From: an uncultured Peptococcaceae bacterium
GTDB lineage: Bacteria; Bacillota; Peptococcia; Peptococcales; Peptococcaceae
Length of the DNA stretch: 64,000 bases
Assembly: GCA_964606855.1 (NCBI GenBank)
Contig: CAZSHM010000003.1
Coordinates: forward strand, 9,172 to 73,171
Reading direction: 5' to 3'
The notes below the pieces were generated by a model. That model was not told where the DNA came from. It saw only the letters and a list, made by a program, of their open reading frames with translations, and did not search any database. Position numbers and translations under genes: made by a program. This document shows positions 17,015 to 51,845 of this stretch, piece after piece (within the stretch, counting starts at the first letter, position 1; every line of letters starts with the position of its first letter).

Positions 17015-18100
17015 TCAGGGCGAAAAGAGCCGCACGATGTCCTTGTAAGTGACCAGCACGATCAGGAGCATCAGCAGGGAGAACCCGATCAGGTTGGCGT
17101 AGCCCTCCTTCTGCGGATCGATCGGTCTGCCCCGCACGCCCTCGATCAGAAGGAAGATCAGCTTGCTGCCGTCCAGAGAGGGAATCGGCAGCAGATTGAT
17201 GACCGCCAGATTCAGCGAGAGCACCGCCGCCAGATTGAACACATAGATCCAGCCGGCCTTGGTCGACTCGTCGATGATCCGCACGATCCCCACCGGACCG
17301 GTCAGGCCCTGCTCGTCGTCGAAAAGATCGATTTTTCCGGTGAACAGGTCCCCCAGCACATCCACCATGGTCACCGTCATCTCCCAGGTGGTCTGGGCGC
17401 CCAGAACCAGGCTCCGGATCGGGCCGACCGCCTGGCGCGTTGCCGTGGCCGCGTAGATACCCAGGATGCTCTTGCCGCCGTCCTCGCTCGCCACCGGCGT
17501 CACCTGCACCGTGAACCGGCTGCCGTCGCGCTCCGCCGTCACCGCCAGCGGCTCCTCCTGAGAGGCATCGCCGACCAGGAGGGTCAGATCTTCCCAGGTG
17601 GATACGCTCTGCCCGTTGATGGCCACGATGCGGTCGCCCGCCGCAAGCCCAGCCGCCTCGGCGGGGCCGCCCTCCATCACCGCGGAGAGCGTCGTGTCGG
17701 GATTCTCGATGGGCACAGCCAGCCCCAGCACCAGGTACATCCCGGCAAAGATGAGGATCGCCGTCAGCACATTCATGAACGAGCCGGCGCTGGCAAAGAT
17801 CATCCGCTGCCACACCGGGCGGTTCTGATAGCGCCGCTCCTCCGGCACCTCGACCGCGTCCGCGCCGCTGTGCGCCTCCTCCTCGACATCCTCCCCCAGA
17901 ACGCGCACATACCCGCCCACCGGCAAGAGCCGCAGGGAGTAGCGCGTCTCGCCCCAGCGCCTGGAGCAGATCTGCGGCCCCATCCCGATGCTGAACTCTT
18001 CAACATACATGCCGGAGAGCTTTGCAGAGAGAAAATGGCCGAACTCATGCACCGTCACCAAGAGCGCGAAGATCAAAATCGCTACGATCGCAGTCAGCAT
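17015..18100 (-). CDS. rseP: RIP metalloprotease RseP/RasP (site-2 protease, M50)
   Basis: HEFGH zinc motif in TM1, PDZ-like middle region, NLLPIPSLDG motif. Confidence 0.92.
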   Translation of the reverse strand: MLTAIVAILIFALLVTVHEFGHFLSAKLSGMYVEEFSIGMGPQICSRRWGETRYSLRLLPVGGYVRVLGEDVEEEAHSGADAVEVPEERRYQNRPVWQRMIFASAGSFMNVLTAILIFAGMYLVLGLAVPIENPDTTLSAVMEGGPAEAAGLAAGDRIVAINGQSVSTWEDLTLLVGDASQEEPLAVTAERDGSRFTVQVTPVASEDGGKSILGIYAATATRQAVGPIRSLVLGAQTTWEMTVTMVDVLGDLFTGKIDLFDDEQGLTGPVGIVRIIDESTKAGWIYVFNLAAVLSLNLAVINLLPIPSLDGSKLIFLLIEGVRGRPIDPQKEGYANLIGFSLLMLLIVLVTYKDIVRLFSP

Positions 18101-20303: not shown

Positions 20304-21052
20304 CACGCATTTCCCCCTTTTTCCTCTACTCCGCCGTAACGGCGATCCCGGTTCTGATAGTCCCAGATGGCCTCCCAGAGATCCTCCTTGCTGAAATCCG
20401 GCCAGAGCACATCGGTCACCCAGATCTCGCTGTACGCGATCTGCCACAGCAGGAAATTGCTGACCCGCAGTTCCCCGGAGGAGCGGATCAGCAGATCGGG
20501 ATCCGGCTGCCCGCCGGTGTAGAGGTAGCCGGCGAAACGCGCCTCGTCGATCTCCTCCGGCGCGAGCGCGCCCCGCTGCACATCCGCGCAGACGGCCCGG
20601 ACCGCCCGCACGATCTCCTGCCGCCCGCCGTAATTCAGGGCGACATTGAGGATCAGGCGGTTGTTCTCCCGCGTGCGCGCCTCCGCATAGCGGATCTTCT
20701 CGCAGGCGCCGCCGCGCAGGGCGCTGATCTCCCCGATCGGCACCACCCGCACGCCCTTCTCCTGCAGATAATCCAGTTCCTGATCGATGAACTCGATCAT
20801 CAGATCCATCAGCGCCTGCACCTCGTCGGCCGGGCGCTTCCAGTTCTCCGTGGAGAATGCGTAGACCGTCAGGTACTGGACGTCCAGCTCATCCAGGGCG
20901 ATGAGCAGCCGTTTCAGCGCCTGCACGCCGACGCGGTGTCCGGCGGTGCGCGCCAGACCCCGCTTTTGAGCCCAGCGCCCGTTGCCGTCCATGATCACCG
21001 CGATATGTTTCGGCATCGGTCTCTGCCGCAATTGTTCCAATGTCACTTTCAT
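20303..21052 (-). CDS. uppS: isoprenyl transferase (undecaprenyl diphosphate synthase)
   Basis: ATG at 21052 with GGGGGAG upstream. HIAVIMDGNGRWA, FSTENWKRP and RTSGE-like SSGELRVSNFLLWQ motifs. Confidence 0.93.
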   Translation of the reverse strand: MKVTLEQLRQRPMPKHIAVIMDGNGRWAQKRGLARTAGHRVGVQALKRLLIALDELDVQYLTVYAFSTENWKRPADEVQALMDLMIEFIDQELDYLQEKGVRVVPIGEISALRGGACEKIRYAEARTRENNRLILNVALNYGGRQEIVRAVRAVCADVQRGALAPEEIDEARFAGYLYTGGQPDPDLLIRSSGELRVSNFLLWQIAYSEIWVTDVLWPDFSKEDLWEAIWDYQNRDRRYGGVEEKGGNA

Positions 21053-21172
21053 AGGATACTCCCCCCGGCCGCGGCATGCGGCCGCACGTTTTCTGCTCTG
21101 CGACTTCCGCCTGCGCCTCCCTGCGCCGCGCCCTCCAGATGGGCGCGCGCCCCCGGCCTTTGCAGTCATTTC

Positions 21173-21201
21173 ATTTTACCATTCCCCGCGCCTTTTTTCA
21201 A
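21173..21201 (-). promoter_or_regulatory. promoter of the uppS...polC cluster
   Basis: Minus strand TTGAAA, 17 nt, TAAAAT, about 120 nt upstream of uppS. Confidence 0.55.
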
Positions 21202-21362
21202 TGCATTTATGCGCGCGATCCTCTGCCCTACCACATTGCAACGCGTGTGAGCCTGAATGGCTCCATCTGTGTGGCGATCCCCGCCCCGCTCAGCGGCCGC
21301 GGACATCCAAATCCGGCTGCAGATCGCCGCCGGCAAAGTTCCGCGCCGCTTCGATTTCTCTC

Positions 21363-21391
21363 TTGTCAGGCGCGCCTCGATCCTGTATAGT
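21363..21391 (+). promoter_or_regulatory. promoter of cinA
   Basis: TTGTCA, 17 nt, TATAGT, about 90 nt upstream of the ATG. Confidence 0.5.
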
Positions 21392-21479
21392 AAGAGCGAG
21401 GCAGGCGCCCCGCGCGCCCCGCCCCGACAGATCCGAGGCGCCGGATGCGTCCGCCGCCGGCACAGAAAGGAGCAATCCC

Positions 21480-22793
21480 ATGTCTGAGAAAACAACTTCC
21501 TCTCCCGCCAAGCCGCCCGTCTCCGCCGAGATCCTCTGCATCGGCACGGAGCTGCTGCTCGGCGAGATTGTCAACACCAACGCCACCTATCTCTCGCGCC
21601 GGCTGGCACGGCTGGGCATCCGCGTCTACCACCACAGCGCGGTGGGCGACAACCCCGAACGCCTGGCCCGGGCGCTCGACGTCGCGCTCTCGCGCAGCGA
21701 TCTGGTCCTCACCACGGGCGGGCTGGGCCCCACCTGCGACGACCTCAGCAAGGAAGTCATCGCCGCGCACTTCGGCCGCGCGCTCGTCCTCCATCCGCCG
21801 TCGCTGGAGCGGCTGGAGGCCTTCTTCGCCGACCGCGGCACGGCATGGACCGAGAACAACAAGAAACAGGCCTACCAGCCGGAAGGCGCCGTCATCTTCC
21901 CAAATCCGAGCGGCACCGCGCCCGGCGCGGCGATCGAGCAGGACGGCAAAACCGTCATTCTCCTGCCCGGCCCGCCGCGCGAGTTGACCCTGATGTTCGA
22001 GACGGAGGTCGAACCGTACCTGCGCCGGTTTGCCGGCCCCGGCATCGTCTCCAGGGAGCTGCGCCTGTTCGGCATCGGCGAATCCGCGGTGGAGACGCTG
22101 CTGCGCCCGCTGATGACCACACAGACCAACCCCACCCTGGCACCCTACGCCCAGGAAGGCGAGGTGATGCTGCGCCTGACCGCCAGCGCGCCCAGCGAAG
22201 CGGAGGCCTATGCCAGGATGGAACCGCTGGAGCGGGAGATCGAACGCCTGGTGGGGCCGTACATCTACGGCGTGGACGTGCCCGACCTGCAGACGGCTCT
22301 GGTGCGCTATCTCCTGGAGCACCGGATCCGCGTGGCGGCGGCGGAGAGCTGCACCGGAGGGCTCATCTCCAAGTGCATCACCGACGTGCCCGGTTCCTCC
22401 GAGATCTATCCCGGCGGCGTCTGCTCCTACTCCAACGAGCGGAAGATGCAGTGGCTGGGCGTCTCCCCCGAGACGCTGGCCGCCCACGGCGCCGTCTCCG
22501 CCGAGACGGCTCTGGAGATGGCGCATGGGATCCGCCGCGCCACCGGCGCCGATCTGGGCGTCAGCACGACCGGCGTGGCCGGCCCCGGCGGCGGCACCGC
22601 GGAGAAACCGGTAGGCCTGGTCTATGTGGCCGTGGCCGGAGAAACCCTGCAGAAGGTGGACGAACTGCACATCCGCTACGGCGCGCAGACCAGCCGCGAC
22701 TTGATCCGGAACCGCGCCGCCAAGCACGCGCTGCACCTGCTGCTCACCGCGGCGAAGACCCTGGCCGGAGAGGGGCCGCAGACGCCGCAATGA
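21480..22793 (+). CDS. cinA: competence/damage-inducible protein CinA (MoCF-binding domain plus PncC-type nicotinamide-nucleotide amidase domain)
   Basis: AAAGGAG RBS. AEILCIGTELLLGEIVNTNATYLSRRLARLGI..., C-terminal AAAESCTGGLISKCITDVPGSS. Confidence 0.92.
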   Translation: MSEKTTSSPAKPPVSAEILCIGTELLLGEIVNTNATYLSRRLARLGIRVYHHSAVGDNPERLARALDVALSRSDLVLTTGGLGPTCDDLSKEVIAAHFGRALVLHPPSLERLEAFFADRGTAWTENNKKQAYQPEGAVIFPNPSGTAPGAAIEQDGKTVILLPGPPRELTLMFETEVEPYLRRFAGPGIVSRELRLFGIGESAVETLLRPLMTTQTNPTLAPYAQEGEVMLRLTASAPSEAEAYARMEPLEREIERLVGPYIYGVDVPDLQTALVRYLLEHRIRVAAAESCTGGLISKCITDVPGSSEIYPGGVCSYSNERKMQWLGVSPETLAAHGAVSAETALEMAHGIRRATGADLGVSTTGVAGPGGGTAEKPVGLVYVAVAGETLQKVDELHIRYGAQTSRDLIRNRAAKHALHLLLTAAKTLAGEGPQTPQ

Positions 22794-22810
22794 GCGGCGG
22801 ACGCGCAAAA

Positions 22811-22904: not shown

Positions 22905-24983
22905 TCAAAACGCTTCCTCCAGGATCTGATAGATCGGCGCGCCCTCACACTGCGCGGGCAGTCTGACCCCGGCTAAGACGCAGCAGGTCGGCGCCAGATC
23001 GACCTGACGGATCCAGCGGTCCGTCTCCTCGCCCTTCTTGATCCCCGGCCCGGCGGCGATGAAAATCGGGGAGGACGATGTGTAGCCGGCGCCATAGGTC
23101 GTAGACAGGCTGTCCGTGTGGTCATAGTTGTATCCCTCTGCGACCCAGACGCAGATATCGCCCGCGGTCGGCCCGCCGTAGCCGAGCAGAATCGCGTCCT
23201 TGTTGCGCAGCGCTAGGGCGACCACGCGTTTCCCGGTATCCGGATGCTTGTATCCGTACAGGTCGGTGATGATCTGCTCCTCCAGCTCGTACTGATCCTC
23301 GGGATCCACGATTCCGTGCGCCTCCCGGCCTTTCAGGTTGATGAAGATATCGTTGCCCATGGATTGGATCGCCCGGGTCTTGCTCCAGTCGATCTTCCGA
23401 ATTCTGTTCCCGTTCTCATCTCTCTGCAGCACCGTGTATCCCAGTTCCTCCATCAGACCCACATTCACGCCGCACATATCCCCGATGGCCGGCGGAATGT
23501 GGTACGGCGCGACCTGCGCATGGTCGGACGTGATCAGGATCGTCCAGCCCTCGTCCAGATAATGGAGCAGCGCGCCGACATAGCGGTCGACCTGCTGATA
23601 GAGGCGCAGCATCCACGCGGCATACACGGATTCCTCGTGCTGGTTGAAGCCGATATCGTGCATATGGCGGATGAATGTGTGCTCCACAAAGTCCACGGAG
23701 TGCAGATGGCTGAAGATTGCCTCGATCCCTTCACTCTCGATCATGTAGTCGATCGTCTTGATATACCAGTCGACCACATTGTCCCACACTTCGATCATGG
23801 CCTCCTGGGAATCCGCATCCTGCGTGTAGATCTGGGACTGCGGCGGGAACGGACCCACGTTCTCGAACAATTCTTTGGCCAGACGCTTCGGATGCAGCAC
23901 GCCGTCGTAATCGATGTCCATGGCCGCGGAGAGATACAGTTTCAGCTCACTGCCGTCCTCCTTCAGGCTCATCAGCTTATAGTGCCGGGTCGCGCGGTAG
24001 GTCTTGTCGTCCGAGATCACGTCGTCCAGAATGTTGTAGACCATTTTCCCGACCTTGCAGGTCGCCATCGGCACCGTGTCTTTCTTGGACTTGTAGACCT
24101 GCACCGTGTCATACACGCCGTCCTTGTTCTTCAGGATCAGGCCCAGGCGGCGAATCAGGCCGCCGCAGATCAGGATGGTGAACTCCTTCGCGCCCTCCGG
24201 AGCGGCCGCCCAGCCCTTCGCGGGTTTGATCGGAGAGATCGCGTTGTTCAGGTTCTGGTTGAAGTCGCCCGCGCGGGTGCCGAAGCCCTCCGCATCGTTC
24301 ATGACAAGATTGATCGTGTCCACGTTGTTCTCTTCGATCATCTTCTTCATTTCTTCGTTGTTGTACAGGTTCAGCATCTGCTGCATGCCGACGGCGGTGT
24401 CCGTCGCGCGGAGTGTCTCCTCAGGAAGTTTGGTGATCACGCAGGGCGCGACCGCGTCCGCGACTTTCTTCGCGACAAAGGTCGGTGCCTCGAATTTTTC
24501 ACTCGCGCCCACGAACAGCTCCGTATCCACCTGCATGGCGGCCGAACCGACCGATCCGGGCGCGGAGCCGTCGATCACGAACAGTTCCTCGCGGTCGCTG
24601 GTCGGCGGCCAGGCTCCGCCCGGCCAGTGGAAGACCAGGGTTTTCTTGCCCGCCTCGACAAAGCAGTTCCACATGGGTTCCGCTTTTACCAGACGGGAGT
24701 CTACATTGTAAGAACTCTGGTTGATCTTCCCCGGAACCGTCCGGCTGAACTGGGTGATGCCGTGCGTGCACGGGTTCGCCCCGGTGGCCAGCGTGGTCCA
24801 CTGCGGCGGCGTGACCGTCGGCTGGGAGCCCAGCATGACCAGATCATGCCGCTGGCAGCCGCGCTCAATCAATGTCTTGAAATTCGGCAGCAGCCCCTCA
24901 TCCACATACTTTCTGGTCAGGCGCGGATCCAAGCCGTCCACGCCCAGAACCATAATCTTCTCTGTAGAAGCTTTTCTCTCCAT
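22905..24983 (-). CDS. alkaline-phosphatase-superfamily enzyme (type I phosphodiesterase/nucleotide pyrophosphatase-like), about 692 aa, no signal peptide (copy A)
   Basis: GAGGAG RBS. VLGVDGLDP, LPNFKTL, nucleophile region QPTVTPPQWTTLATGANPCTHGI, distal ILITSDHA motif. Paralog of 46045..48162. Confidence 0.8.
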   Translation of the reverse strand: MERKASTEKIMVLGVDGLDPRLTRKYVDEGLLPNFKTLIERGCQRHDLVMLGSQPTVTPPQWTTLATGANPCTHGITQFSRTVPGKINQSSYNVDSRLVKAEPMWNCFVEAGKKTLVFHWPGGAWPPTSDREELFVIDGSAPGSVGSAAMQVDTELFVGASEKFEAPTFVAKKVADAVAPCVITKLPEETLRATDTAVGMQQMLNLYNNEEMKKMIEENNVDTINLVMNDAEGFGTRAGDFNQNLNNAISPIKPAKGWAAAPEGAKEFTILICGGLIRRLGLILKNKDGVYDTVQVYKSKKDTVPMATCKVGKMVYNILDDVISDDKTYRATRHYKLMSLKEDGSELKLYLSAAMDIDYDGVLHPKRLAKELFENVGPFPPQSQIYTQDADSQEAMIEVWDNVVDWYIKTIDYMIESEGIEAIFSHLHSVDFVEHTFIRHMHDIGFNQHEESVYAAWMLRLYQQVDRYVGALLHYLDEGWTILITSDHAQVAPYHIPPAIGDMCGVNVGLMEELGYTVLQRDENGNRIRKIDWSKTRAIQSMGNDIFINLKGREAHGIVDPEDQYELEEQIITDLYGYKHPDTGKRVVALALRNKDAILLGYGGPTAGDICVWVAEGYNYDHTDSLSTTYGAGYTSSSPIFIAAGPGIKKGEETDRWIRQVDLAPTCCVLAGVRLPAQCEGAPIYQILEEAF

Positions 24984-25041
24984 AAAACTCGCTCCTCTCC
25001 TCAATGGATCTTGTAAGGGAAACGGATATAGAAACGGATGT

Positions 25042-26493
25042 CTACGCCAGCAGGTAGTAGGGGATCAGCACAGCCATCAGCAGCAGAACCCCGTAGACCA
25101 TCAGCGCGGGCGTCCATTTATAGCACGTCACCGGTTTCAGTGATTCGCTGGAGTGCAGCAGGGCGCCCGGCAGGGAAGCCGCCGGCGTGAGATACGCGAC
25201 AAACACGCTGGAAAGGGAGATGATGACCGCGGCCGCCGTGATGTTGACATCGAACCCGTTGTTGTACATCGCGCAGACCAAGTTGATCATGACAAAGCAC
25301 ACTGCGATGTTGTTCCCGATGTTTGTCAGAAGGATGGTGACCAGTGCCAGCACAAACATGAAGAAGATTCCGCCGTTGTTGAACAGCGGCATCAGCAATC
25401 CTGCCAGCCAGCTGCTGATGCCCGTCTCCTCGCTGGTCAGAACCGTCGAGATCAAGAGGGCGATCGCGATCAGCATCAGCATATCCCACTGGAAGTCCGC
25501 TGCCGCTTTCTTCATGTCCAGAACCGGCTGCCCGTCCACCCGCCACGCGATCACAAACAGCCACAGAATCACCATCAGGCCCAGCACGCCCATCTGTACG
25601 TTGAGCCAGCCCAGAGCCTGGAACAGGTTGCCGAACATGCTGACCAGAACCACCAGGACGACGAAGATCACGACGGACCACACCGCGATCTTCTGCCGCA
25701 GATTCATCTTGGACTCCTGGGAAACCGGGAAGGTGGCCGCCACATCAACCGTCGCCAGTTTGTCGAATTTGCAGCCGCAAAGTTTCATCAGGAGCGGGTA
25801 GGTGAGCATCGCCACGGCGATCAAAAGAAGCATCAGGCCCATATACGCGTTGTAGGAGATCGGAACCTGCGTGAGCTGCATCATCGTGCCGGCCGTCATC
25901 AGGCTCCATCCCATAAAGGGAAAGATGCTCATCCCCATCTGCCCGGCCATCAGACAGCCCGCCAGGAAGAAATAATTGAATTTGTCGCCTTTCTCATAGC
26001 CGCACTTCAGCAGCATGCTGTTCATCAGCGGCAGCAGGGCAAAGTACAGGAACCAGACAATTCCCACGACATTGCCGACGATAAAAATCAGGAAGAAAAT
26101 CTCTAACATCATGACCGGGCTCTTTCGGATCAGCTTGCTGCTGAGCAGTTTCGCGATGATGTAATCCCCCGCGCCGGACTGCTGCACCGCCATGAAGGCC
26201 AGCACGCCGACGAGCATCATCAGCACCGTGCTGTTGCTGAACATCGCGACAAACACATCCTGGCAGCTGCCGTACCCGGTCGTCGCCAGCGCCACCGCCC
26301 CAAACAAGCTGGGAATCAGGAGTCCGATGAACGTCCAGCCGTAAACCAACCCGACAAAGACACCCGCCACAGCCATCCCGTACTCTGTCACACTCCCAGG
26401 AGGCGGCAGCAGACGGAACCCGAACGTCAGCAGAACCATCACGGTAAAATGGATCGCGTACTTGCTGACGCTTTTCTTTTTTACTTCCGACAT
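25042..26493 (-). CDS. polytopic permease, ion-transporter-superfamily-like (copy A)
   Basis: 483 aa with roughly 12-14 hydrophobic segments and a GAGGGGA RBS. Clear paralog of 41640..43121. The family call is by pattern only. Confidence 0.7.
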   Translation of the reverse strand: MSEVKKKSVSKYAIHFTVMVLLTFGFRLLPPPGSVTEYGMAVAGVFVGLVYGWTFIGLLIPSLFGAVALATTGYGSCQDVFVAMFSNSTVLMMLVGVLAFMAVQQSGAGDYIIAKLLSSKLIRKSPVMMLEIFFLIFIVGNVVGIVWFLYFALLPLMNSMLLKCGYEKGDKFNYFFLAGCLMAGQMGMSIFPFMGWSLMTAGTMMQLTQVPISYNAYMGLMLLLIAVAMLTYPLLMKLCGCKFDKLATVDVAATFPVSQESKMNLRQKIAVWSVVIFVVLVVLVSMFGNLFQALGWLNVQMGVLGLMVILWLFVIAWRVDGQPVLDMKKAAADFQWDMLMLIAIALLISTVLTSEETGISSWLAGLLMPLFNNGGIFFMFVLALVTILLTNIGNNIAVCFVMINLVCAMYNNGFDVNITAAAVIISLSSVFVAYLTPAASLPGALLHSSESLKPVTCYKWTPALMVYGVLLLMAVLIPYYLLA

Positions 26494-26777: not shown

Positions 26778-27773
26778 TCAGAGCCGCGCGGAATGCATGC
26801 AGGGCAGAACATTCCAGAGATACCCGTGATAGCGGAAACTGCGGACGGCTTTCTCCTTTCCTGTCGCCTCCAGCTCCTGCAGCCACGCCGCATACTTCTC
26901 CCGCGGCACGGCGGGCGGCAGGCGTTTCATCGCCTGCACAATCTCCAGGAACGGTTCGTTGTAGTAGCGCTCCAGCAGCTCCTGAAACTGCCGGCGTCCG
27001 GTATCCAGATCCCCGTAGGTGCCGGCGTAGTAGTCCTGCCGGAGGATCGGCGTGACGACCTTCCCCTCCGCGATCGCCTGGTTCCGCTGCTCGATGGTTT
27101 TCGTCTCAAAGGCGTTCCGCTTGTAGGAGATCGCCCCGTTCTGCACATAGGCGAACCCGCTGTAACTGCGCTTGTAATAATTGTATTCCAGGATATCCTC
27201 CTCCATCTTTCGGTACTCGTCCGCCAGCCAGTTCATCCAGTAGGCATAACCCTCCCGGGTCAGATGCTTCATGGTCAGCGCGTCCAGTGCCAGGCCCCGC
27301 AGGATCTCGAGCGCCACCCGGTCAAAGGTGTTCTCGGCCTCGTTCTTGGCCCGGAGCAGGATGGGCATCGCTTTGTCATCGGCCGGATAAGCGGAGAGAT
27401 CCTCCATGGCGGAAAAGTAGCACTTCGGGTAGTCCTCCCGCAGGGTGTAGGCCGTCTGGCGCTTGAACTTCTGCCGGATTTCGTCCCGGGCGCCCGCCAG
27501 GACATTGCACCGCATCACAAAATATCTGGGCGGGGTCGGATAGACGCTGCGCAGGATGCAGTTCGCGATGAATTTGTTCATGGAGCGCTCCGTGCTGCTG
27601 ATATAGTACTTGATCTTCCCGGACTCGATGAACGCGCTCCCGTAGCAGGCGAACTCCTCCTCCATAAACCCGCTGTTGATCAGTTCCTTCGACTGCGCGG
27701 CCGCGATCGCGTCGTGGTCCAGATCCTGGGTCAGCATATCATGCTCCGCTTCCAACATTGCCACGGTTCTCAC
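26778..27773 (-). CDS. hypothetical protein, Tyr/Trp-rich, no recognised domain
   Basis: Long non-shadow ORF inside the operon with plausible codon usage. The start is ambiguous: GTG 27773, GTG 27764 (best SD spacing), or ATG 27758. Confidence 0.6.
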   Translation of the reverse strand: MRTVAMLEAEHDMLTQDLDHDAIAAAQSKELINSGFMEEEFACYGSAFIESGKIKYYISSTERSMNKFIANCILRSVYPTPPRYFVMRCNVLAGARDEIRQKFKRQTAYTLREDYPKCYFSAMEDLSAYPADDKAMPILLRAKNEAENTFDRVALEILRGLALDALTMKHLTREGYAYWMNWLADEYRKMEEDILEYNYYKRSYSGFAYVQNGAISYKRNAFETKTIEQRNQAIAEGKVVTPILRQDYYAGTYGDLDTGRRQFQELLERYYNEPFLEIVQAMKRLPPAVPREKYAAWLQELEATGKEKAVRSFRYHGYLWNVLPCMHSARL

Positions 27774-27794: not shown

Positions 27795-28649
27795 TCAGTA
27801 GCTCGCCGTGGAAGCCGGGGAGGCGGCGGGCCAGATGCAGGCGCCGCTCACGCAAATCGTCTGCCCGCTGATAAACGCGGCGGCATCGCTTGCCAGGAAA
27901 ATAAAGACATGGATCAGTTCATCCGGATGACACATAAATCTTCCCATCGGCGCAAATTTTGCCGCCAGGTTCGAGGCCTCCGCCATCTGTTCCGCCATGG
28001 CCGCGTCCATCCGCACATTCGGGTTGGACATCGGCACCGGATTGCCGTCAAAGTCCACGGTCTGGATCCCCGCCGGAGCCACCGCGTTGACGCGGATCTT
28101 TTTCGGGCCGAGTTCCCTGGCCATGCCCAGCGTCAGCCCCTCCACGGCAAATTTCGACGCCGTGTAGCCGATATTTCGCATCGCGCCGTCCACACCGGCC
28201 ATGGAGCTGGTGTTGAGGATGGCGCCGCCGCCCTGTTCGGCGATCACTCTGGAAAGAACCTTGCTGGCCATGAACGTCCCCGTCACATTCACATCGAACA
28301 CGGTTTGAAAGAGTTCCTTCGGATATTCGTCGAATGTCTTCGCCGGGTACAGTCCCGCGTTGTTCACCAGGATATCGATCCCGCCCCAGTCCGCGCAGAT
28401 CTCCTCCGCCATGGCCTCCAGCTCCTCCTCGCTGCTCAGGTTCGGGCGAAAGCCTTTCACCTGATAGGCGGGATCCAGCGCCCGCAATTTTTCTACCGCC
28501 TCCGCGTATGTCTCCTGCGGAGCGCAGCAGATCGCCACGTTCGCGCCGCACTCCAGGAATCTCCTGGCCATCAGCAGGCCCAGTCCGCGGTTGGCCCCCG
28601 TGATGACGGCACGCTTTCCCTTCAAAATTTCTCCGAAATACCGATGCAT
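27795..28649 (-). CDS. short-chain dehydrogenase/reductase (SDR)
   Basis: AGGAGG lies 8 nt before the ATG at 28649. TGANRGLG, NNAG and S...YTASK catalytic motifs. Confidence 0.9.
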   Translation of the reverse strand: MHRYFGEILKGKRAVITGANRGLGLLMARRFLECGANVAICCAPQETYAEAVEKLRALDPAYQVKGFRPNLSSEEELEAMAEEICADWGGIDILVNNAGLYPAKTFDEYPKELFQTVFDVNVTGTFMASKVLSRVIAEQGGGAILNTSSMAGVDGAMRNIGYTASKFAVEGLTLGMARELGPKKIRVNAVAPAGIQTVDFDGNPVPMSNPNVRMDAAMAEQMAEASNLAAKFAPMGRFMCHPDELIHVFIFLASDAAAFISGQTICVSGACIWPAASPASTASY

Positions 28650-28650
28650 C

Positions 28651-29178
28651 CTACACGCCTCCTGTGCTTCCGATTTGTATTGCCGCAGACTCCTCCGTCC
28701 GGGACAGGCCCTTCTTCCGGGAAAGTTTCGCATCGTAGAGCTCCACGATCAGGCCGGTGTCCTTCCGCAGATCCATGTAACAGTAGAATCCGTTCTCGGC
28801 CGATCCGCCCTCCACCAGCGTCTCCGCGCCCAGCGCCCGCATCCGCTCCCGCATGCCCGCGTAATCGTTCACGCCGAGACAGATGTGCTGTATGCCCGGG
28901 CCATGCTGATCGAAGAACTCCTTCTGGGAATTGACGTCCCCTCCCGTGTGCTGGATAAATTCAAACTCCACGCCCGCGACTTGTACCATGGCCAGCCGCA
29001 TATAAGCCGTGACCAGCCGTCCCCGGAACTTGACGGGCGCATTCTGTTCCGACAGATCGACATACCGGATCCCGGCAGGATCGATCGCGCACATGGCGCA
29101 GAGTGTCTCCGCCGCTCTCCGCGCGTCGGCCACCACAATGCCGATCTGAAAAAACTTCTCCACCTTGACTTCGCCCAA
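28651..29178 (-). CDS. VOC (glyoxalase/bleomycin-resistance/dioxygenase) family protein
   Basis: TTG start at 29178 with GGGAGGA 6 nt upstream. FFQIGIVVAD...VEFEFIQH...GIQHICLGV...LIVELY beta-alpha-beta-beta-beta repeats. Confidence 0.7.
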   Translation of the reverse strand: MGEVKVEKFFQIGIVVADARRAAETLCAMCAIDPAGIRYVDLSEQNAPVKFRGRLVTAYMRLAMVQVAGVEFEFIQHTGGDVNSQKEFFDQHGPGIQHICLGVNDYAGMRERMRALGAETLVEGGSAENGFYCYMDLRKDTGLIVELYDAKLSRKKGLSRTEESAAIQIGSTGGV

Positions 29179-29198: not shown

Positions 29199-30005
29199 CT
29201 ACAAGATTTGTTTGATGTTCGACGTGACCTGCAGATCCACATAGAAGTGATCCTCGGTCTGCACGACACGCACCGGATAATTTAGAAAATCGCTCATGGA
29301 CGCGTCGGTAAAGAGATCCTGCGATCTGCCCTTCGCATAGATTGTCCCGTTCCGCAACAGCAGGCATTTGTCAAACAGCTGCAGAATCTCCTCCGTATAG
29401 TGCGTGACGTAGATCACCGTCATCTCCGGGTTTTCCGCCAGCGCCCGAACCGTGGCGAGCATATATTCTCTGGCAAACACATCCAGGCCGGTCCCCGGCT
29501 CGTCCAGAATCAGCATCTCCGGGTTGCTGATCAAGGCCCGCGCGATCAAAACATTCTGCCGCTCTCCCTTGGACAGCAGATCGAACGTGCGGTGCATTTT
29601 GGCTTCCAGCCCCAATTCCGCCAGAAGCTGATTCGCGCGCCGGATGTCCGCGTTGCGAACCTTCCAGCGGTTGTTCCCCAATTTTCCGCTGATTCCGGAA
29701 AGCACGATGTTCAGAACGCTCTCCCGCTGGTAATACCGGTCAAAGAAGGAACTGCTGATCCATCCCACTTTCTTGCGCTTTTCCAGGATATTCTCCTCGG
29801 TGTAGGGGCTGCCGAAGACCTCCACAGAGCCTCCCGAAAACCCGCGGAACCCCGCAATGATGCTCAGGAGCGTCGTTTTCCCCGATCCGTTCAGGCCGAA
29901 AACGACCCAGTGCTCCCCCTTTTGCACGGACCAGTCGATATTGCTCAGCAGCGCGTGGTTTCCGGCCAGGCAGGTCAGATCGCGCAATCTCACTACTTCT
30001 GCCAT
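29199..30005 (-). CDS. orphan ABC ATPase, ModF/YlmA (COG1119)-like, no cognate permease (copy A)
   Basis: Walker A GLNGSGKTT, signature LSKGERQNVLIARAL, Walker B MLILDEPGTGLD, H-loop VTHYTEEI. Paralog of 45032..45859. Confidence 0.85.
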   Translation of the reverse strand: MAEVVRLRDLTCLAGNHALLSNIDWSVQKGEHWVVFGLNGSGKTTLLSIIAGFRGFSGGSVEVFGSPYTEENILEKRKKVGWISSSFFDRYYQRESVLNIVLSGISGKLGNNRWKVRNADIRRANQLLAELGLEAKMHRTFDLLSKGERQNVLIARALISNPEMLILDEPGTGLDVFAREYMLATVRALAENPEMTVIYVTHYTEEILQLFDKCLLLRNGTIYAKGRSQDLFTDASMSDFLNYPVRVVQTEDHFYVDLQVTSNIKQIL

Positions 30006-30017
30006 GTTCCCGCCCCC

Positions 30018-30431
30018 TCAGTCCAGCGTCTCATCTTCCAGCATCAGGGCTTCCCCCAAAAGTTCCGTCTTCAGATCCAGAGAGGTCGTAAAACCGTCCT
30101 CGCGCAGGAGGCCGAGATTCCGGCAGCCCCAATCGATGATCTCGCTCACCTTGGCGATATTCATCTCTCTTTTGCGGATATTGTTGTCCAGATCCTTGTA
30201 GTAATCAAAACGCAGCTCGTCTACAAAATACTCTGCCACCTCGTAAATCTCCGGTTCCACCCCGTATTCGATGCGCTTGCAGTGGTCACAATAGATTTCC
30301 AGCTTGGAGATATCGTAACTGCTGTAGGTCAGTTTGCGCAGTTCCAGCGTCCCGCCGCAATAACTGCAGCGGCATCTCCGCACCCGCTTTCTCAGGCGCT
30401 CCTCCTCCTGTTTCTCCGCAGTCTCGTCCAT
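30018..30431 (-). CDS. small zinc-ribbon protein (CxxC...CxxC), 137 aa (copy A)
   Basis: The internal ATG at 30431 gives MDETAEKQEEERLRKRVRRCRCSYCGG...IYCDHCKRIEYGVE... Homologous along its length to 44612..45028. The upstream part of the 255-aa ORF overlaps two terminators. Confidence 0.7.
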   Translation of the reverse strand: MDETAEKQEEERLRKRVRRCRCSYCGGTLELRKLTYSSYDISKLEIYCDHCKRIEYGVEPEIYEVAEYFVDELRFDYYKDLDNNIRKREMNIAKVSEIIDWGCRNLGLLREDGFTTSLDLKTELLGEALMLEDETLD

Positions 30432-30604
30432 TCTGAAATTCAGCCACCGATCCTTCGCGGCATCCACAAAAATCCCTTCTTTCTCGCTCGCCCTTCTGCG
30501 ACAATTTCTCCTCTGCTTATCGCAATTATAAATCCGCCTTTTGCAAGTTGTTTCGCCCGAGTTCTTTATAATCCACGCGCTTTCTAGTAAAAAATACCTA
30601 CTAC

Positions 30605-30630
30605 AAAAAAACAGCACGGGAAACGTGCTG
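30605..30630 (-). terminator. intrinsic terminator (second of a tandem pair)
   Basis: cagcacg/cgtgctg stem followed by a U7 tract on the minus strand. Confidence 0.55.
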
Positions 30631-30740
30631 TTTGGGCGGCCGCTGCGCCGGGAGATTCGCGCGGGCCGCAGAAGTGCCGTTCGTGCGGGAATCCTGCTGT
30701 GCACAGTCCGGCGCCCGGCAGGCGGAGCGGAAAAAAGCGC

Positions 30741-30779
30741 AAAAAAATAGCCCGATCCGCAGGATACTACGGATCGGGC
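30741..30779 (-). terminator. intrinsic terminator downstream of the ricA/ylbF-like gene
   Basis: 10-bp stem gcccgatccg/cggatcgggc followed by UAUUUUUUU on the minus strand. Confidence 0.75.
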
Positions 30780-31265: not shown

Positions 31266-32693
31266 CTAGTCTGCCAGTTCGCCCTTGAGCACCCAGGTCT
31301 GCGCCTCGGCGACGCGGACCGGAAGGATTTTTCCCGCCAGCGCGGGATCCCCCGCGAAGAGCACGGTCTTGTTGGTGGTGGTGCGGCCCTGCAGCATCGC
31401 CGCGTCGGTTTTGCTCCCGCCCTCCACCAGCACATCCACGGTGCGGCCCACAAGGGTGTCGTTGATCTCGCGGCTGATCTCCGACTGGAGCGTATTCAGC
31501 CGCTGCAGACGCTCCTTTTTCTCCTCCGGGGAAACCGGATCCTCCATGCGGGCGGCCGGCGTGCCGCTGCGCTTGGAATAGAGGAAGGTAAAGGCGGTGT
31601 CAAAGCGCACACGCCGCACCAGATCGAGTGTCTCCTGAAAGTCCTCCTCCGTCTCGCCGGGAAAACCGACGATGAGGTCGGTGGTGATGGCGGCCCCGGG
31701 CAGCGCGCGGCGGATCCGCTCCACCAGGCGCAGATACGTCTCCTTGCTGTAGCGGCGGTTCATCCGCTGCAGGATGCGGCTGCTGCCCGACTGCACTGGA
31801 AGGTGCACGTGATCGCACACCTTCCGGCTGTCTGCGATGGTCCGCACCAGCTCGTCCGTGAAATCCTTGGGGTGGGAAGTCATAAAGCGGATGCGGCGCA
31901 GACCCTCGATGCCGTCCAGCTCGCGCAGGAGCCCGGCAAAGCTGGTGCCGTCCGCCAGGTCCGTCCCGTAGCTGTTGACATTCTGCCCCAGGAGTGTCAC
32001 TTCCACCACACCGTCCGCCACCAGGCGCCGCACTTCCGCCGCGATGTCCGCCTGCCGGCGGCTCCGCTCCCGTCCCCGCACATACGGCACGACGCAGTAG
32101 GTGCAGAAATTGTTGCAGCCGTAGATGATGTTGACCAGCGCCTGATAGGGGTGCGCGCGCCGGACAGGCAGACCCTCCTGCACGGGCTCCTCTTGCGGCC
32201 AGATTTCCACCTGCCGCTCCGCGCCCCGGTAGAGCGCGAGGAGATAGCGCGGCAGCTGCTGCAGATTGTGCGTGCCGAAGATGAGATCCACATGCGGCGC
32301 GGACGCGCGGACCAGATCGGCTTCGTTCTGCTGCTGCATCATGCAGCCGCAGACCCCGATGATGCAGTCGGGCCGCTTCTGCTTCAGGGCGCGCAGTTCG
32401 CCCAGATGGCTCAGGACCTTGCTCTCCGCTTTTTCGCGGATACAGCAGGTGTTAAAGAGCAGGAGATCGGCATCTTCCTCGCGCGCGGCGGGCACAAAGC
32501 CCATCTGCTGCAAAAGGCCGGCCAGAACCTCCGAATCGTGCTCATTCATCTGGCAGCCGAACGTGCGGATGCAGTAGGCGCGGTCGCGCCCGTGCAGCGC
32601 TCGGTACTGCAGGTTCAGCCGCAGGACATCGTCTGCAAAGCAGCGCGCATCCTGCTGCCGCGCATCGCGCGCCGCCTGCTCCTCCGCCCTCAT
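31266..32693 (-). CDS. miaB: tRNA (N6-isopentenyl adenosine(37)-C2)-methylthiotransferase
   Basis: ATG overlaps the hemL stop (ATGA). N-terminal [10 protein letters not shown]...[10 protein letters not shown]...CGCM cluster, radical-SAM [12 protein letters not shown] domain. Confidence 0.92.
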
Positions 32694-34006
32694 TCCATCA
32701 CCTTCGCCTGTCCGCGCTGCGCCGCCACCGCGGCAAAAGCGTCCCGGGCGGCGGCGATGGTCGCCTCGATGTCCGCGTCGCTGTGCGCCGTGGAGACGAA
32801 CCAGCACTCAAACTGCGATGGCGGCAGATAGACGCCCGCCTGCAGCATCGCCTGAAAGAAACTTTTAAACTGCGCCGTATCGGCGCGCATGGCCTGCGCG
32901 TAGCCCTCCACCGGCCCCTCGGTAAAGAAGACCGTGAGCAGCGACGCGCACTGGTGGACGGTGACCGCGACGCCCGCCTCGCGCGCGGCATCCCTCAATC
33001 CCTGCGCCAGCGCGGCGGCCTTGGCCTCCACCGCCTCGTAGACGCCGGGCTTGGCCAATTCCCGCAGCGCGGCAATGCCGGCAGCCATGGCCAAGGGGTT
33101 TCCGGAGAGCGTTCCCGCCTGATAGACCGGCCCGGAGGGCGCCACCAGCTCCATGATCTCCCGCCGTCCGCCGTACGCGCCGACCGGCAGCCCGCCGCCG
33201 ATAATCTTTCCCAGGCAAGTGAGGTCGGGCAGTACGCCGTAGACCTGCTGCGCGCCGCCGTAGGAGGCACGGAACCCGCTGATCACCTCGTCGAAAATCA
33301 GCAGCGCGCCGTAACGCCGGGTGATCTCCCGCAGTCCCTCCAGGAAGCCTTCCCTGGGAAGCACCAGCCCCATGTTGCCCGGCACAGGTTCCACGATGAC
33401 GGCGGCGATCTCTTCCGGATACCGCGCAAAGAGCCGCTCCACGCTCTCCAGATCGTTGTACTCGGCCACCAGGGTCTCCGAGGCGATGGATTCCGGCACG
33501 CCGGGGCTGGAGGGAACTCCGAACGTCAGCGCGCCGGAGCCCGCCTGGATCAGCAGATGGTCGGCGTGCCCGTGGTAGCAGCCGGCGAATTTCACCAGCT
33601 TGTCGCGGCCCGTATAGCCGCGGGCCAGACGGATCGCGCTCATGGTCGCCTCTGTGCCGGAATTCACCATCCGCACCATCTCGATGGAGGGCACCGCCTC
33701 CGTGATGCGGCGCGCGATCTCCACCTCCGCCTCCGTGGGCGCGCCGAAAGTGCTGCCCTTTTCCAGCGCCGCCCGGATCGCCGCCGTGACGGCGGGCGGC
33801 CGGTGCCCCAGAAGCAGCGGTCCCCAGGAACAGACGTAGTCGAGGAGACGGTTTCCGTCCACATCATAGAGGTACGCGCCCTCCCCCCGCTCGATGAAGA
33901 CAGGGAAATCGCCCACCGCCCGGAAGGCGCGCACCGGGCTGTTGACGCCGCCTGGAATCAGCCGCACGGCCTCCCGGTAGAGCGCCTGTGATTTTTCAAA
34001 CTGCAT
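32690..34006 (-). CDS. hemL: glutamate-1-semialdehyde 2,1-aminomutase
   Basis: [32 protein letters not shown]..., PLP lysine region [10 protein letters not shown]. Confidence 0.95.
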
Positions 34007-34009
34007 CCC

Positions 34010-35023
34010 TCACTCCCCCTCTCGGCACGATGCGGCCGGATATGTCTCCTCCCGCAGCCAGCGGGCCACGTCGATGGCGTGGTAAGTCACGATCAGATCC
34101 GCGCCGGCCCGCACAAAGCCGGTCATCAGCTCCATCACAATCTTTTTCTCGTCGATCCAGCCGTTCTGCGCCGCCGCCTTCACCATGGCGTACTCGCCGC
34201 TGACATTGTAGGCCACGATGGGCTGCTCGAACGTCTCCCTCGCCCGGGCGAGGATGTCCAGATAGGCGAGCGCGGGCTTGATGATGATATAGTCCGCGCC
34301 CTCCTCCACATCGAGCCGCGTCTCCGCCATGGCCTGGCGCGCGCTGCAGGCGGGATCCATCTGATAGGTTTTTCGGTCGCCGAACTGCGGCGCGGAGCCC
34401 GCCGCCTCGCGGAAGGGGCCGTAGAAGGCCGAGGCGTACTTGGCCGAGTAGGCCATCACCGCGACATCCGGGAAGCCGGCCGCATCGAGGGCCGTGCGCA
34501 AGGCGCCCACGCGGCCGTCCATCATATCCGACGGCGCGATGATATCCGCGCCCGCTCTCGCCTGGCTCACCGCCGTCTTTGCCAAGAGTTCGAGCGTGGG
34601 ATCGTTCAGCACCCGCCCCGCGTCGTCCACGATGCCGCAGTGCCCGTGGCTCGTATACTCGCAGAGACAGCAGTCCGCGAGGATCACCAGATCCGGATAG
34701 GCGCTCCGCACCAGGGCGATCGCCCGCTGCACGATGCCGTCCTCCGCGTAGGCCTGGCTGCCCACGGGATCCTTCTTTTCCGGCACGCCGAAGAGGATGA
34801 TGCTGCAGATGCCCGCGGAGACCGCCCGATCCACCTCCTCCAGCAGATGATCCAGCGAGTACTGGCAGATGCCCGGCATAGAGTCTACGGGACGGAGAAT
34901 GTCCTCTCCCTCCGCCACGAAGATGGGATAGATCAGCTGCTCGGCGTGGACACGGTACTCCCGCACCATCCGGCGGATGTTCTCGCTCCGCCGGTAGCGG
35001 CGCATCCTTGTGGTTGGAAACAT
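34010..35023 (-). CDS. hemB: porphobilinogen synthase (delta-aminolevulinate dehydratase)
   Basis: [17 protein letters not shown]...LIYPIFV, Cys-rich Zn site [13 protein letters not shown]. Confidence 0.95.
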
Positions 35024-35039
35024 GATTCAGCCCCTCTTT

Positions 35040-36650: not shown

Positions 36651-37651
36651 GACACGCCTCCTGTCTCGCTCCGATCGGATCCGCTCCCGCCGGCGCGAAT
36701 CTCCTGCAAGATCTGCGCGCCGCCCGCCTCGGATAGCTCCGCCGCCAGCTGCCGCCCCAGCGCGCGCGCGGCCCGGAGACCGCGCTCCGCCGTATCCGGC
36801 AGCGCGCACGCGGCGGAGCGGCGCACGATGCGGCTGCCGTCGAGCGCGCCCACCAGCCCGTCCAAGGAAAGCGTGCCGTCCCGCAGCCGGGCGTTGGCGG
36901 CGACGGGAACCTGGCAGCCGCCCTCCAGCGCCGCGAGGAGCGCGCGCTCTGCCGCCGCGCAGAGCGCGGTCTCCGCATCGTGCACCGGCACCAGGAGATC
37001 CGCGATCTCCGCGTCGCCGCTCCGGCTCTCCACGCAGAGGATCCCCTGGCAGACGGCCGGCAGACAGACCGAAAAAGGAAGCCGCTCTCGGATGTGCCGC
37101 GCGAGCCCCATGCGCTCCAGACCGGCCGCCGCCAGGACGATGCCGTCAAAGCCCTCCTCCTCCATCTTCCGCAGCCGCGTCTGCAGGTTGCCGCGCAGAT
37201 CGCGGATCTCCAGATCCGGCCGCACATGCAAAAGCTGCGACTTGCGGCGCAGACTGCTGGTGCCCAGCTTGGCCCCGCGCGGCAACGCCGCGAGGGAGGC
37301 ATAGCGCGGCGAGAGCAGCACATCCGCCGGATCGTGGCGCTTCAGCACGCAGGTGATCGCAAGCCCCGGCGGCAGCTCCGTGGGGACATCCTTTAGGCTG
37401 TGCACCGCGAAATCCAGCTCTCCGCTCAGAAGCCCTGCCTCCAAGTCCCGCGTGAAAAGCCCCTTGTCCCCGATTTTCGACAGAGAGACATCCAGGATGC
37501 GATCTCCCGCGGTCTTTCGCGCGACCACCTCGTACGCCCGATCCTCACCGGTCTCCCGCAGTCTGTCCAGAACGAAGTTCGTCTGCCAAAGGGCCAGGGC
37601 GCTCTCCCGTGAGCCCACCCGAATCGTCTGCTTCCGAATCGTCTGCTTCAT
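36647..37651 (-). CDS. hemC: hydroxymethylbilane synthase (porphobilinogen deaminase)
   Basis: AAAGGAG lies 7 nt before the ATG at 37651. IRVGSRESALALWQ...KIGDKGLFTRDLE...HSLKDVP. Confidence 0.93.
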   Translation of the reverse strand: MKQTIRKQTIRVGSRESALALWQTNFVLDRLRETGEDRAYEVVARKTAGDRILDVSLSKIGDKGLFTRDLEAGLLSGELDFAVHSLKDVPTELPPGLAITCVLKRHDPADVLLSPRYASLAALPRGAKLGTSSLRRKSQLLHVRPDLEIRDLRGNLQTRLRKMEEEGFDGIVLAAAGLERMGLARHIRERLPFSVCLPAVCQGILCVESRSGDAEIADLLVPVHDAETALCAAAERALLAALEGGCQVPVAANARLRDGTLSLDGLVGALDGSRIVRRSAACALPDTAERGLRAARALGRQLAAELSEAGGAQILQEIRAGGSGSDRSETGGVS

Positions 37652-39595: not shown

Positions 39596-39634
39596 GTGTA
39601 AAACCTCTTTTCCGCAAAGGCGCCCGCGCCGCAC

Positions 39635-45859: not shown

Positions 45860-45915
45860 GCGCATCTGTCCTTCTATTGGAATCAAAAAAAAGGAAGTTA
45901 AAAAATGATGGGGAT

Positions 45916-48374: not shown

Positions 48375-48424
48375 AAAAAAACACCCCCGACACACGGACG
48401 GGGAATCGCCCGTGTGTCGGGGGG
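48375..48424 (-). terminator. intrinsic terminator of groEL
   Basis: 14-bp stem cccccgacacacgg / ccgtgtgtcggggg followed by UGUUUUUUU on the minus strand. Confidence 0.8.
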
Positions 48425-51729: not shown

Positions 51730-51734
51730 TATTC

Positions 51735-51807: not shown

Positions 51808-51845
51808 TGGATTCTATCTTCCGGTTCGGTTTTACCGTTCCGCTC

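Follow-up and report, generated by a model that had tools for sequence, protein, structure and literature searches.

The 64,000-nt stretch of contig CAZSHM010000003.1 analysed here (uncultured Peptococcaceae bacterium; GC ~63%), which we refer to as the window, contains two gene cassettes, A and B, each comprising an enzyme of about 700 residues from the alkaline phosphatase (AlkP) superfamily, a polytopic permease, and a soluble ATP-binding cassette (ABC) ATPase encoded next to a zinc-ribbon protein (ZnR). Read 5′ to 3′ along the minus strand, cassette A has the order ZnR_A, ABC_A, a vicinal oxygen chelate (VOC) protein, a short-chain dehydrogenase/reductase (SDR), an orphan protein, permA and enzA, and cassette B the order enzB, ABC_B, ZnR_B, a LysR-type regulator and permB. 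Their features, with the evidence for each assignment in brackets, are:

22905–24983, minus strand: enzA, enzyme of 692 aa counted from the first ATG (PF01663; alignment with nucleotide pyrophosphatase/phosphodiesterase, NPP, and with PhnA; core of the AlphaFold2, AF2, model in Foldseek)
25042–26493, minus strand: permA, polytopic 483-aa CitMHS-like permease of the ion transporter (IT) superfamily, 58 nt upstream of enzA (PF03600)
26778–27764, minus strand: orphan protein P0121, 328 aa, soluble, third member of the type-A trio (homologs 3′ of the ABC gene; counts below)
27795–28649, minus strand: SDR-family oxidoreductase, ~284 aa from the ATG (adh_short, 174 bits)
28651–29163, minus strand, start approximate: single-module VOC/glyoxalase-fold protein (Glyoxalase_4, E 1.6e-12)
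29199–30005, minus strand: ABC_A, soluble ModF/YlmA-like ABC ATPase with a single nucleotide-binding domain (NBD) (ABC_tran, 96.9 bits)
30018–30467, minus strand: ZnR_A (P0442), 149-aa zinc-ribbon protein with a GTG start (family alignment)
30609–30779, minus strand: two terminator-like hairpins 3′ of ylbF, upstream boundary of cassette A (13-bp and 10-bp stems, T tracts)
41495–41471, minus strand: terminator-like site 3′ of permB (hairpin)
41640–43121, minus strand: permB, 493 aa, paralog of permA (PF03600)
43452–43437, minus strand: terminator-like site between the LysR gene and permB (hairpin)
43469–44377, minus strand: LysR-type regulator of cassette B (HTH_1 and LysR_substrate)
44612–45028, minus strand: ZnR_B, 138 aa, paralog of ZnR_A, downstream of the ABC_B gene (alignment)
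45032–45886, minus strand: ABC_B, paralog of ABC_A (sequence identity, below)
46045–48162, minus strand: enzB, 705 aa, paralog of enzA (PF01663; same catalytic residues and loop Cys)
48384–48423, minus strand: terminator-like hairpin 3′ of groEL, upstream boundary of cassette B (17-bp stem)

An earlier note, made from the letters of this DNA, had described the enzyme and permease genes as two paralogous pairs, and all four open reading frames (ORFs) do lie on the minus strand at the coordinates and lengths listed above. Pairwise alignment confirmed the paralogy: the enzymes are 29% identical over 707 columns spanning their full length (E 6e-92) and the permeases 26% identical (E 3e-27), and the relationship extends to the ATPases (45% identity, E 5e-78) and the zinc-ribbon proteins (37%, E 1e-29). 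At the DNA level the two cassettes share only short stretches, in the ABC genes and in the region encoding the nucleophile, and no homolog of the orphan protein was found in cassette B by protein comparison.

The enzyme motifs that had been read by eye are present in both proteins (VLGVDGLDP, LPNFKTL, PTVTPPQW...ATG..P..HGI and SDHA in enzA; VIGLDSADP, MPNLKKL, PSVTPPNW...HGI and SDHG in enzB), and the suggested NPP-like assignment was borne out by PF01663, which enzA and enzB pass with 91.5 and 94.1 bits respectively (Pfam cut-off 23 bits), the match being split into N- and C-terminal stretches by an insertion. In profile and pairwise alignments, Thr58 of enzA aligns with the nucleophilic Thr of Xanthomonas NPP (T90) and of PhnA, and SDH (D487/H488) with their SDH/ADH metal-binding motif. 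The predicted metal ligands are D16, D431, H435, D487, H488 and H622; the correspondence of D16 and D487/H488 to NPP ligands comes from the alignments, and that of D431/H435 and H622 from order and invariance. These six residues and T58 are at least 99% conserved in 160 sequences of the subfamily, T58 in all of them, and the seven are kept in 110–114 of the 116 aligned sequences of the wider superfamily of 580–720-aa proteins. In the AF2 model of enzA (pLDDT 83, pTM 0.86), T58 is followed by a helix at residues 60–67, and the top Foldseek matches are PafA, SPAP, ENPP1, PhnA and NPP, all at probability 1.0, though over the core only, with TM-scores to the query of ~0.4. Neither enzyme has a hydrophobic N-terminus or a transmembrane (TM) segment (maximal 19-residue hydropathy 1.2–1.3), as expected from the cytoplasmic location without signal peptide that had been proposed. 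No well-characterised orthologous group claims the two enzymes, since the scores with the PhnA equivalog TIGR02335 (24.2 and 31.3 bits; cut-off 407.55) and the PafA equivalog NF042991 (34 and 27.7 bits; cut-off 650) fall far below threshold.

The insertion that separates the two halves of the core comprises ~300 residues of enzA (about 125–420), is mostly beta and yielded no Foldseek match. The long non-conserved middle reported earlier corresponds to only ~80 of these residues (161–240), the rest of the insertion (241–420) being conserved. Within this hypervariable loop the paralogs are just 10–17% identical, family conservation is 0.21–0.44 and the model has pLDDT <50 at residues 173–205; yet it contains a Cys (Cys181 of enzA, window positions 24441–24443; ‘NKDCII’ in enzB) that is present in 160/160 subfamily sequences. 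In the wider superfamily the equivalent position is Cys in 17 and a gap in 98 of the 116 sequences, the loop being an insertion mostly absent there. Loop length has a median of 72 aa in enzymes linked to the ZnR–ABC–orphan trio and 70 aa in those without it, a difference that is not significant (p = 0.07).

Searches for relatives indicated a large family. At least 2100 enzyme homologs were found at E up to 0.001 in a large protein database, named, where named at all, ‘alkaline phosphatase family protein’ or ‘hypothetical’; a profile search of 50%-identity representatives gave 1445 clusters at E up to 1e-30, and at least 511 relatives were confirmed in species-representative genomes. The best 80 of these 511 come mainly from gut metagenome-assembled genomes (MAGs) labelled ‘uncultured Peptococcaceae’, single MAGs contributing 16, 10 and 5 loci, the other carriers among the 80 being Desulfitobacterium sp. 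Sab5, Desulfosporosinus fructosivorans, Pelotomaculum propionicicum, Gracilibacteraceae, Syntrophomonas and a few Coriobacteriia MAGs. Hence, the earlier idea of two versions of one module stands insofar as the pair is diverged, but the window cassettes are two anciently diverged members of a highly amplified family, of two cassette types, and not the outcome of a local duplication. A search of 2.9 million viral contigs gave no relatives.

Some loci elsewhere (L087/L088, L019, L191, L231 and L234) hold three to five enzyme paralogs within 14–22 kb, interleaved with LysR genes, permeases and accessory sets; in L087 two enzyme genes are split into fragments (302 and 463 aa) and are possibly pseudogenes. 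Cassettes also occur in MAGs assigned to Actinomycetota (L096, Eggerthellaceae; L193, Actinomycetes; L076/L078/L080, Coriobacteriaceae and Eggerthellaceae), among them an enzB ortholog of 80% identity with ABC and ZnR genes, which indicates either cross-phylum transfer or binning contamination.

Co-localisation of these gene families in other genomes, on which the earlier proposal of a module depended, was strongly confirmed when all ORFs of 90 enzyme-anchored loci were clustered without supervision, the families recurring as follows:

enzyme: 89/90 loci
LysR regulator: 79/90 loci
permease: 76/90 loci
ABC ATPase: 40/90 loci
orphan protein (~315–320 aa): 36/90 loci
zinc-ribbon protein: 33/90 loci

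No further gene family recurred in more than 8 of the 90 enzyme-anchored loci. Only one or two of 36 units depart from the order ZnR–ABC–orphan; the units usually lie directly downstream of the enzyme gene, or of the enzyme–permease pair, on the same strand. When ZnR was used as the anchor instead (79 loci), an adjacent ABC gene was present in 79/79, the orphan gene in 73/79 and an enzyme gene within 7 kb in 63/79, most of the loci without an enzyme gene ending at contig ends. Because of this co-occurrence, the helper set of ABC ATPase, ZnR and orphan protein appears to be specific to the AlkP-type enzyme. The earlier note had correctly placed each enzyme set beside an ABC/zinc-ribbon pair; the relationship goes beyond adjacency, and the orphan gene at 26778–27764 had been missed. 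Two separately conserved arrangements can be distinguished, type A with ZnR–ABC–orphan and type B with enz–ABC–ZnR–perm and no orphan. Thus, enzB orthologs of 72–81% identity in eight genomes are found as (LysR)–enzB–ABC–ZnR, with a permease in 6/8, an SDR in 6/8 and an orphan gene in none, and the enz–ABC–ZnR order is conserved in loci L094–L098, L100 and L101.

The three accessory proteins differ in how much can be said of them. The ABC family retains intact Walker A, Walker B and H-loop motifs with a variant signature, LSKGERQ, while Ser takes the place of the Q-loop Gln throughout the family in a comparison with a MalK reference sequence. ABC_A and ABC_B (268–284 aa, a single NBD) have ModF (NF008186) as their top NCBIfam match, at 124.5 and 117 bits against a cut-off of 459, and an orphan structural-genomics ABC ATPase, 2ihy, as the best PDB match (E 2e-48). 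ZnR has an invariant CxCxxC...CxxC pattern followed by a helical acidic C-terminal domain; its family forms 550 clusters in 5.8 billion proteins, none of which has a Pfam domain or a name beyond ‘hypothetical protein’, and profile searches with it returned generic zinc-ribbon matches only, all below threshold. The orphan protein is internally duplicated (N-half versus C-half, hhalign probability 96%, E 3.5e-9) and is modelled with a pLDDT of 84, but searches of Pfam, of PDB sequences and with Foldseek gave no match (best Foldseek E 0.19). It evolves much faster than the enzyme (median pairwise identity 28% versus 54%) and its family has almost no invariant polar residues; a genome scan with narrow patterns reached four close relatives. 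Since none of the three proteins has TM segments by hydropathy, and no conserved gene for a transmembrane-domain partner was among the recurrent genes of the ZnR-anchored loci, the accessory set is not a transporter in the usual sense. Enzyme and accessory divergence are correlated in mirror-tree comparisons (Mantel r 0.67–0.73, 0/2000 permutations), but the correlation collapses to 0.07–0.21 for deep paralog pairs, pointing to co-inheritance rather than specific co-evolution.

Both permeases pass PF03600 (CitMHS; permA 55.6 and permB 44.3 bits, cut-off 31.9), in agreement with the anion permease suggested earlier as the partner of each enzyme, and have about 11–15 hydrophobic segments (13 and 15 peaks counted, some overlapping). 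PermA is 61% identical to the permease encoded beside an enzA relative (itself 75% identical) in locus L001. Permease relatives in other loci also match Na_sulph_symp (DASS), and some neighbours match PF02040 (ArsB).

Among characterised enzymes, Xanthomonas NPP (PDB 2gsn) and ENPP proteins have in common with the window enzymes the PF01663 fold, the P-S/T-x-T-x-P...HGI Thr motif, SDH and the downstream His ligands. The similarity is nonetheless limited to ~110 N-terminal residues and short motifs (E 4e-6 to 5e-8), and the window enzymes differ in being cytoplasmic, whereas the NPP/PafA ecto-enzymes are secreted or periplasmic, in being ~300 aa longer owing to the inserted domain, in having Phe or Tyr in place of Asn111, and in adding the subfamily loop with its invariant Cys and a dedicated ATPase accessory. 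The best profile-to-PDB sequence match is PhnA (3szy, 1ei6; E 5.8e-11), which has the same Thr nucleophile and bimetal site and acts on a small anionic substrate; however, PhnA (~410 aa) lacks the insertion and keeps the Asn, and the window enzymes have no phnW- or phnY-type neighbours. In Pseudomonas fluorescens 23F, phnA is reportedly under the control of a LysR-type regulator rather than of Pho. PafA/SPAP (5tj3, 3q3q) are the top Foldseek matches (E 1e-13), with similarity in the C-terminal core and a TM-score to the query of ~0.41, but PafA is secreted and has Asn100, Lys162 and Arg164, unlike the window enzymes. To our knowledge, no permease, LysR regulator or ATPase accessory has been reported with AtaC, a much shorter protein than the window enzymes. 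AtaC, a phosphodiesterase for c-di-AMP in the Streptomyces cytoplasm (PMC7132281), also belongs to PF01663 and thereby sets a precedent for an intracellular function of this Pfam family.

For the ATPases, the best relatives are orphan ABC ATPases of the ModF/YlmA type (COG1119; PDB 2ihy, 4hzi), soluble NBDs without a known membrane partner. ModF has two fused NBDs, whereas ABC_A and ABC_B have one and invariably come with a specific zinc-ribbon protein, joined in type A by the orphan, a combination without described counterpart. A precedent within the superfamily for an AlkP-fold hydrolase with a dedicated accessory and many paralogs per gut genome is provided by the formylglycine sulfatases with anSME/FGE; the window enzymes differ from these in lacking C/SxPxR, in the Thr nucleophile and bimetal His-rich site, and in having an ABC set in place of a radical-SAM enzyme or FGE. 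Our literature searches found no description of the enzyme subfamily, the zinc-ribbon family, the orphan family or the cassette. The enzyme is thus an uncharacterised branch of a well-known superfamily, and the unusual part is its specific accessory.

With moderate confidence, we propose that each of the two cassettes works as an uptake-and-cleavage unit that is induced by its substrate. The latter would be a small organophosphorus anion, with phosphodiesters and phosphomonoesters as the likeliest candidates and phosphonates as a further possibility. In this scheme, the LysR-type regulator would switch the cassette on and the IT-superfamily (CitMHS/DASS-like) permease would import the anion, which the cytoplasmic ~700-aa enzyme would cleave in the manner of NPP and PhnA, with two metals held by D16, D431, H435, D487, H488 and H622. 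A covalent intermediate would arise by attack of Thr58 on the phosphorus and then be resolved by water, and the ~300-aa inserted domain probably closes over the site and sets specificity. The SDR, together with the VOC protein in cassette A, probably processes the released alcohol in the two cassette lineages of the window. Each enzyme copy presumably has its own specificity, which would explain the amplification. For the accessory set our preferred guess is that the ABC ATPase and ZnR, with the orphan in type A, form a partner that uses ATP to activate, load or regulate the enzyme, rather than a transporter. The bimetal His-rich site is the reason for favouring phosphorus over sulfur chemistry, and phosphonates are kept in play because PhnA is the best sequence relative. 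Of the anionic phospho-, phosphono- or sulfo-ester substrates considered at the outset, a sulfate ester is therefore the unlikely one, given the bimetal site, the Thr nucleophile and the absence of C/SxPxR from both window enzymes. Pho-type phosphate scavenging was also considered and is unlikely, the enzyme being cytoplasmic, control being by LysR and not PhoB, and the many paralogs each having an importer of their own.

Several observations weigh against the proposed uptake-and-cleavage unit. Where NPP (N111) and PhnA have an Asn in contact with the phosphoryl oxygen, enzA has Phe79 and enzB a Tyr, and the same position is F, Y, M or W in 106/116 sequences of the wider superfamily; because of this replacement, transition-state stabilisation is predicted to differ from that of the characterised members. 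The invariance of Cys181 within a hypervariable loop hints at a thiol chemistry or redox control that the model leaves unexplained. Moreover, the ATPase set accompanies ~40% of the enzyme genes, and in several non-gut relatives the enzyme gene adjoins genes for thioredoxin (Trx) and thioredoxin reductase (TrxR), yet a plain hydrolase needs neither; and no downstream catabolic genes recur in the 90 enzyme loci. In the Trx-linked cases, a Trx-like protein (CHVC) and a fusion of TrxR (CATC) to a Trx domain follow the enzyme, with or without a transporter, in P. propionicicum (two loci), D. fructosivorans, Desulfitobacterium sp. Sab5 and one further genome (loci L040, L045, L053, L082 and L089/L090). 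The order in Sab5 (L053) is enz–ZnR–ABC–orphan–TrxR–perm–Trx, with the Trx-system genes at L053:14421–15644 and 17597–17893. The window contains no Trx or TrxR genes of this kind. The Trx linkage and the invariant loop Cys together suggest a thiol or redox involvement not explained by a simple hydrolase.

This bears on the first alternative, in which the enzymes would act, independently of formylglycine, as sulfatases on sulfoconjugates of host or dietary origin (such as steroid, aryl or sugar sulfates), with the permease importing the ester and the SDR oxidising the freed hydroxyl; in a variant, the sulfuryl group would be passed to the loop Cys and reduced by thioredoxin to sulfite, as in 3′-phosphoadenosine 5′-phosphosulfate (PAPS) reductase, feeding sulfite respiration. 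The Trx and TrxR genes adjacent to the enzyme gene in Desulfitobacterium, Desulfosporosinus and Pelotomaculum and the invariant Cys181 would suit such a route, as would the Na_sulph_symp matches of some permease relatives, the recurrence of an SDR in both cassette lineages of the window and the many paralogs, which would match the diversity of sulfoconjugates. We know of no genes assigned to the desulfation reported for Peptococcus niger, nor of any natural sulfatase with an NPP-type bimetal Thr site. According to two reviews, P. niger is reported to desulfate estrogen-3-sulfates and phenylsulfates (PMC3508456, PMC12178105). The hosts of the cassettes are likewise gut Peptococcaceae, but this link is purely taxonomic, and the window is devoid of a Trx system. 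The active site, moreover, is an NPP-type bimetal set with a Thr nucleophile; the C/SxPxR sulfatase motif is absent from enzA and enzB and occurs in just 1/160 family sequences; and the Pfam matches to Sulfatase (PF00884, 17.2 bits; cut-off 25) and SGSH_C are sub-threshold and confined to the generic C-terminal core. On balance, we consider a sulfatase unlikely.

A more radical possibility, to which we give little credence, is that the subfamily is not a plain hydrolase but the catalytic core of an undescribed multi-component ester-cleaving machine, in which the invariant loop Cys could work with the ABC/ZnR/orphan set or with a dedicated thioredoxin system. Such a machine could, for example, release sulfite or another reducible oxyanion reductively from organic esters in a thiol-dependent manner for anaerobic respiration, or could couple ATP to the activation of otherwise inert esters or phosphonates. 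If it existed, amplified to dozens of specificities, it would be a major unrecognised turnover route for host and dietary conjugates in gut Peptococcaceae.

An ATPase would also find a rationale if the enzyme were a phosphomutase or phosphotransferase like cofactor-independent phosphoglycerate mutase (iPGM) or phosphopentomutase, and the ABC/ZnR/orphan set an ATP-dependent activase priming a phospho-Thr. The cytoplasmic location and the large domain inserted between the core halves are indeed reminiscent of iPGM, the accessory appears exclusive to the enzyme family, and one homolog is named ‘predicted AlkP superfamily phosphohydrolase/phosphomutase’ at JGI. Nonetheless, the accessory is missing from the vicinity of most enzyme paralogs, protein kinase activity is not known for ABC NBDs, the metal ligands conform to the NPP type (His-rich, Zn), and an importer and a LysR regulator with each copy fit the catabolism of external compounds better than an isomerisation, so that we regard this reading as improbable.

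Equally doubtful is a role of the accessory set in supplying the secondary permease with energy from ATP for import, much as ArsA does for ArsB, with the orphan and ZnR as adaptors. Permease and ArsB are members of one superfamily, some neighbours match the ArsB family PF02040, the ATPase keeps all catalytic motifs, and enz–perm–ZnR–ABC–orphan is a frequent order. Yet a permease is present in only 40/79 ZnR-anchored loci, compared with 63 for the enzyme, the commonest arrangement is LysR–enz–ZnR–ABC–orphan with no permease, permease–enzyme pairs without the accessory set are common, and the ATPase lacks the Q-loop Gln through which NBDs are coupled to membrane domains. Finally, a function in anti-phage defence or in degrading nucleotide signals, comparable to PglZ in BREX or to ENPP1/AtaC-type cleavage combined with an AriA/GajA-like ATPase, is highly improbable: PF01663 members such as AtaC do cleave cyclic dinucleotides and the ABC ATPases give weak PADLOC matches (mad3, E 3e-26; AriA, E 4e-9), but these reflect generic NBD similarity, PADLOC has no match for the enzyme, ZnR or orphan, many copies each with a LysR gene and an anion permease are a metabolic signature, viral contigs hold no relative, and the cassettes have no integrase or repeat boundaries in the window.

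The uptake-and-cleavage reading that we prefer gives the amplification in gut Peptococcaceae a particular meaning, since multiplication of one enzyme subfamily with its own regulator and importer usually marks the main substrate route of a lineage, a pattern comparable to that of sulfatases or polysaccharide utilisation loci in Bacteroides. The accessory contains two protein families without Pfam model, solved relative or name. It also links a ModF-like ABC ATPase, from a class whose function has long been unclear, to a constant genetic partner and to an enzyme that may be its client, so that the role of this ATPase can be tested directly. Experiments are feasible because there are carriers in culture, in Desulfitobacterium, Desulfosporosinus and Pelotomaculum.

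With respect to genomic context, the cassettes are flanked by Bacillota chromosomal housekeeping genes, namely those for PolC, ProRS, CinA, UppS, YlbF, MiaB, GroEL, AspRS and MutY, a haem biosynthesis cluster and a polyprenyl synthase gene. The module genes are lower in GC, as had been guessed by eye, at 53–61% versus 62–69% for the housekeeping genes. However, the genes for enzyme, permease and orphan have a GC3 (0.82–0.84) equal to that of the housekeeping genes (0.80–0.89), and the deficit is located in codon position 1, which implies that it reflects amino-acid composition and not recent transfer; a recent horizontal transfer, as low GC might suggest, was accordingly rejected. Within the window, no direct or inverted repeats, mobile-element genes or integrase were seen flanking either cassette, nor was a riboswitch or other Rfam element found in the cassettes. 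Orthologous cassettes in sister MAGs (90% and 72–81% identity) share none of the window's housekeeping flanks, and we conclude from this that the cassettes are positionally unstable accessory units. Given the terminator-like sites at 43452–43437 and 41495–41471, permB is probably a transcription unit separate from the rest of cassette B.

The SDR and VOC genes are lineage-specific additions to cassette A. The SDR is 66% identical to one in locus L001, where the VOC protein has a tandem two-module homolog of 313 aa, either half of which it matches. The VOC gene at 28651–29163 encodes one module of ~170 aa, with an uncertain start codon in an ORF that overlaps the end of ABC_A.

Other features of the window concern its neighbouring genes. 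Beside enzA, the real gene is that for CinA at 20982–22793 on the plus strand (MoCF_biosynth, CinA_KH and CinA domains), and the 480-aa minus-strand ORF at 21366–22808 adjoining enzA is probably spurious. Between the cassettes lies the haem/sirohaem cluster (32690–39634), encoding GlutR (HemA), a sirohaem-synthase-like protein, a HemD–methylase fusion and HemL. Directly upstream of the polyprenyl synthase gene, a 212-aa ORF (40622–41260) with native GC3 (0.83) and no Pfam or NCBIfam match could, at a guess, specify a small subunit for a heteromeric prenyl diphosphate synthase. A tRNA gene cluster at 51656–51918 on the plus strand, downstream of a 5-formyltetrahydrofolate cyclo-ligase gene, has three members, Glu(ttc), Val(tac) and Thr(tgt), and the lower-GC left end of the window contains an Eco57I-like restriction-modification methylase domain at 1473–3152 (E 3e-6).

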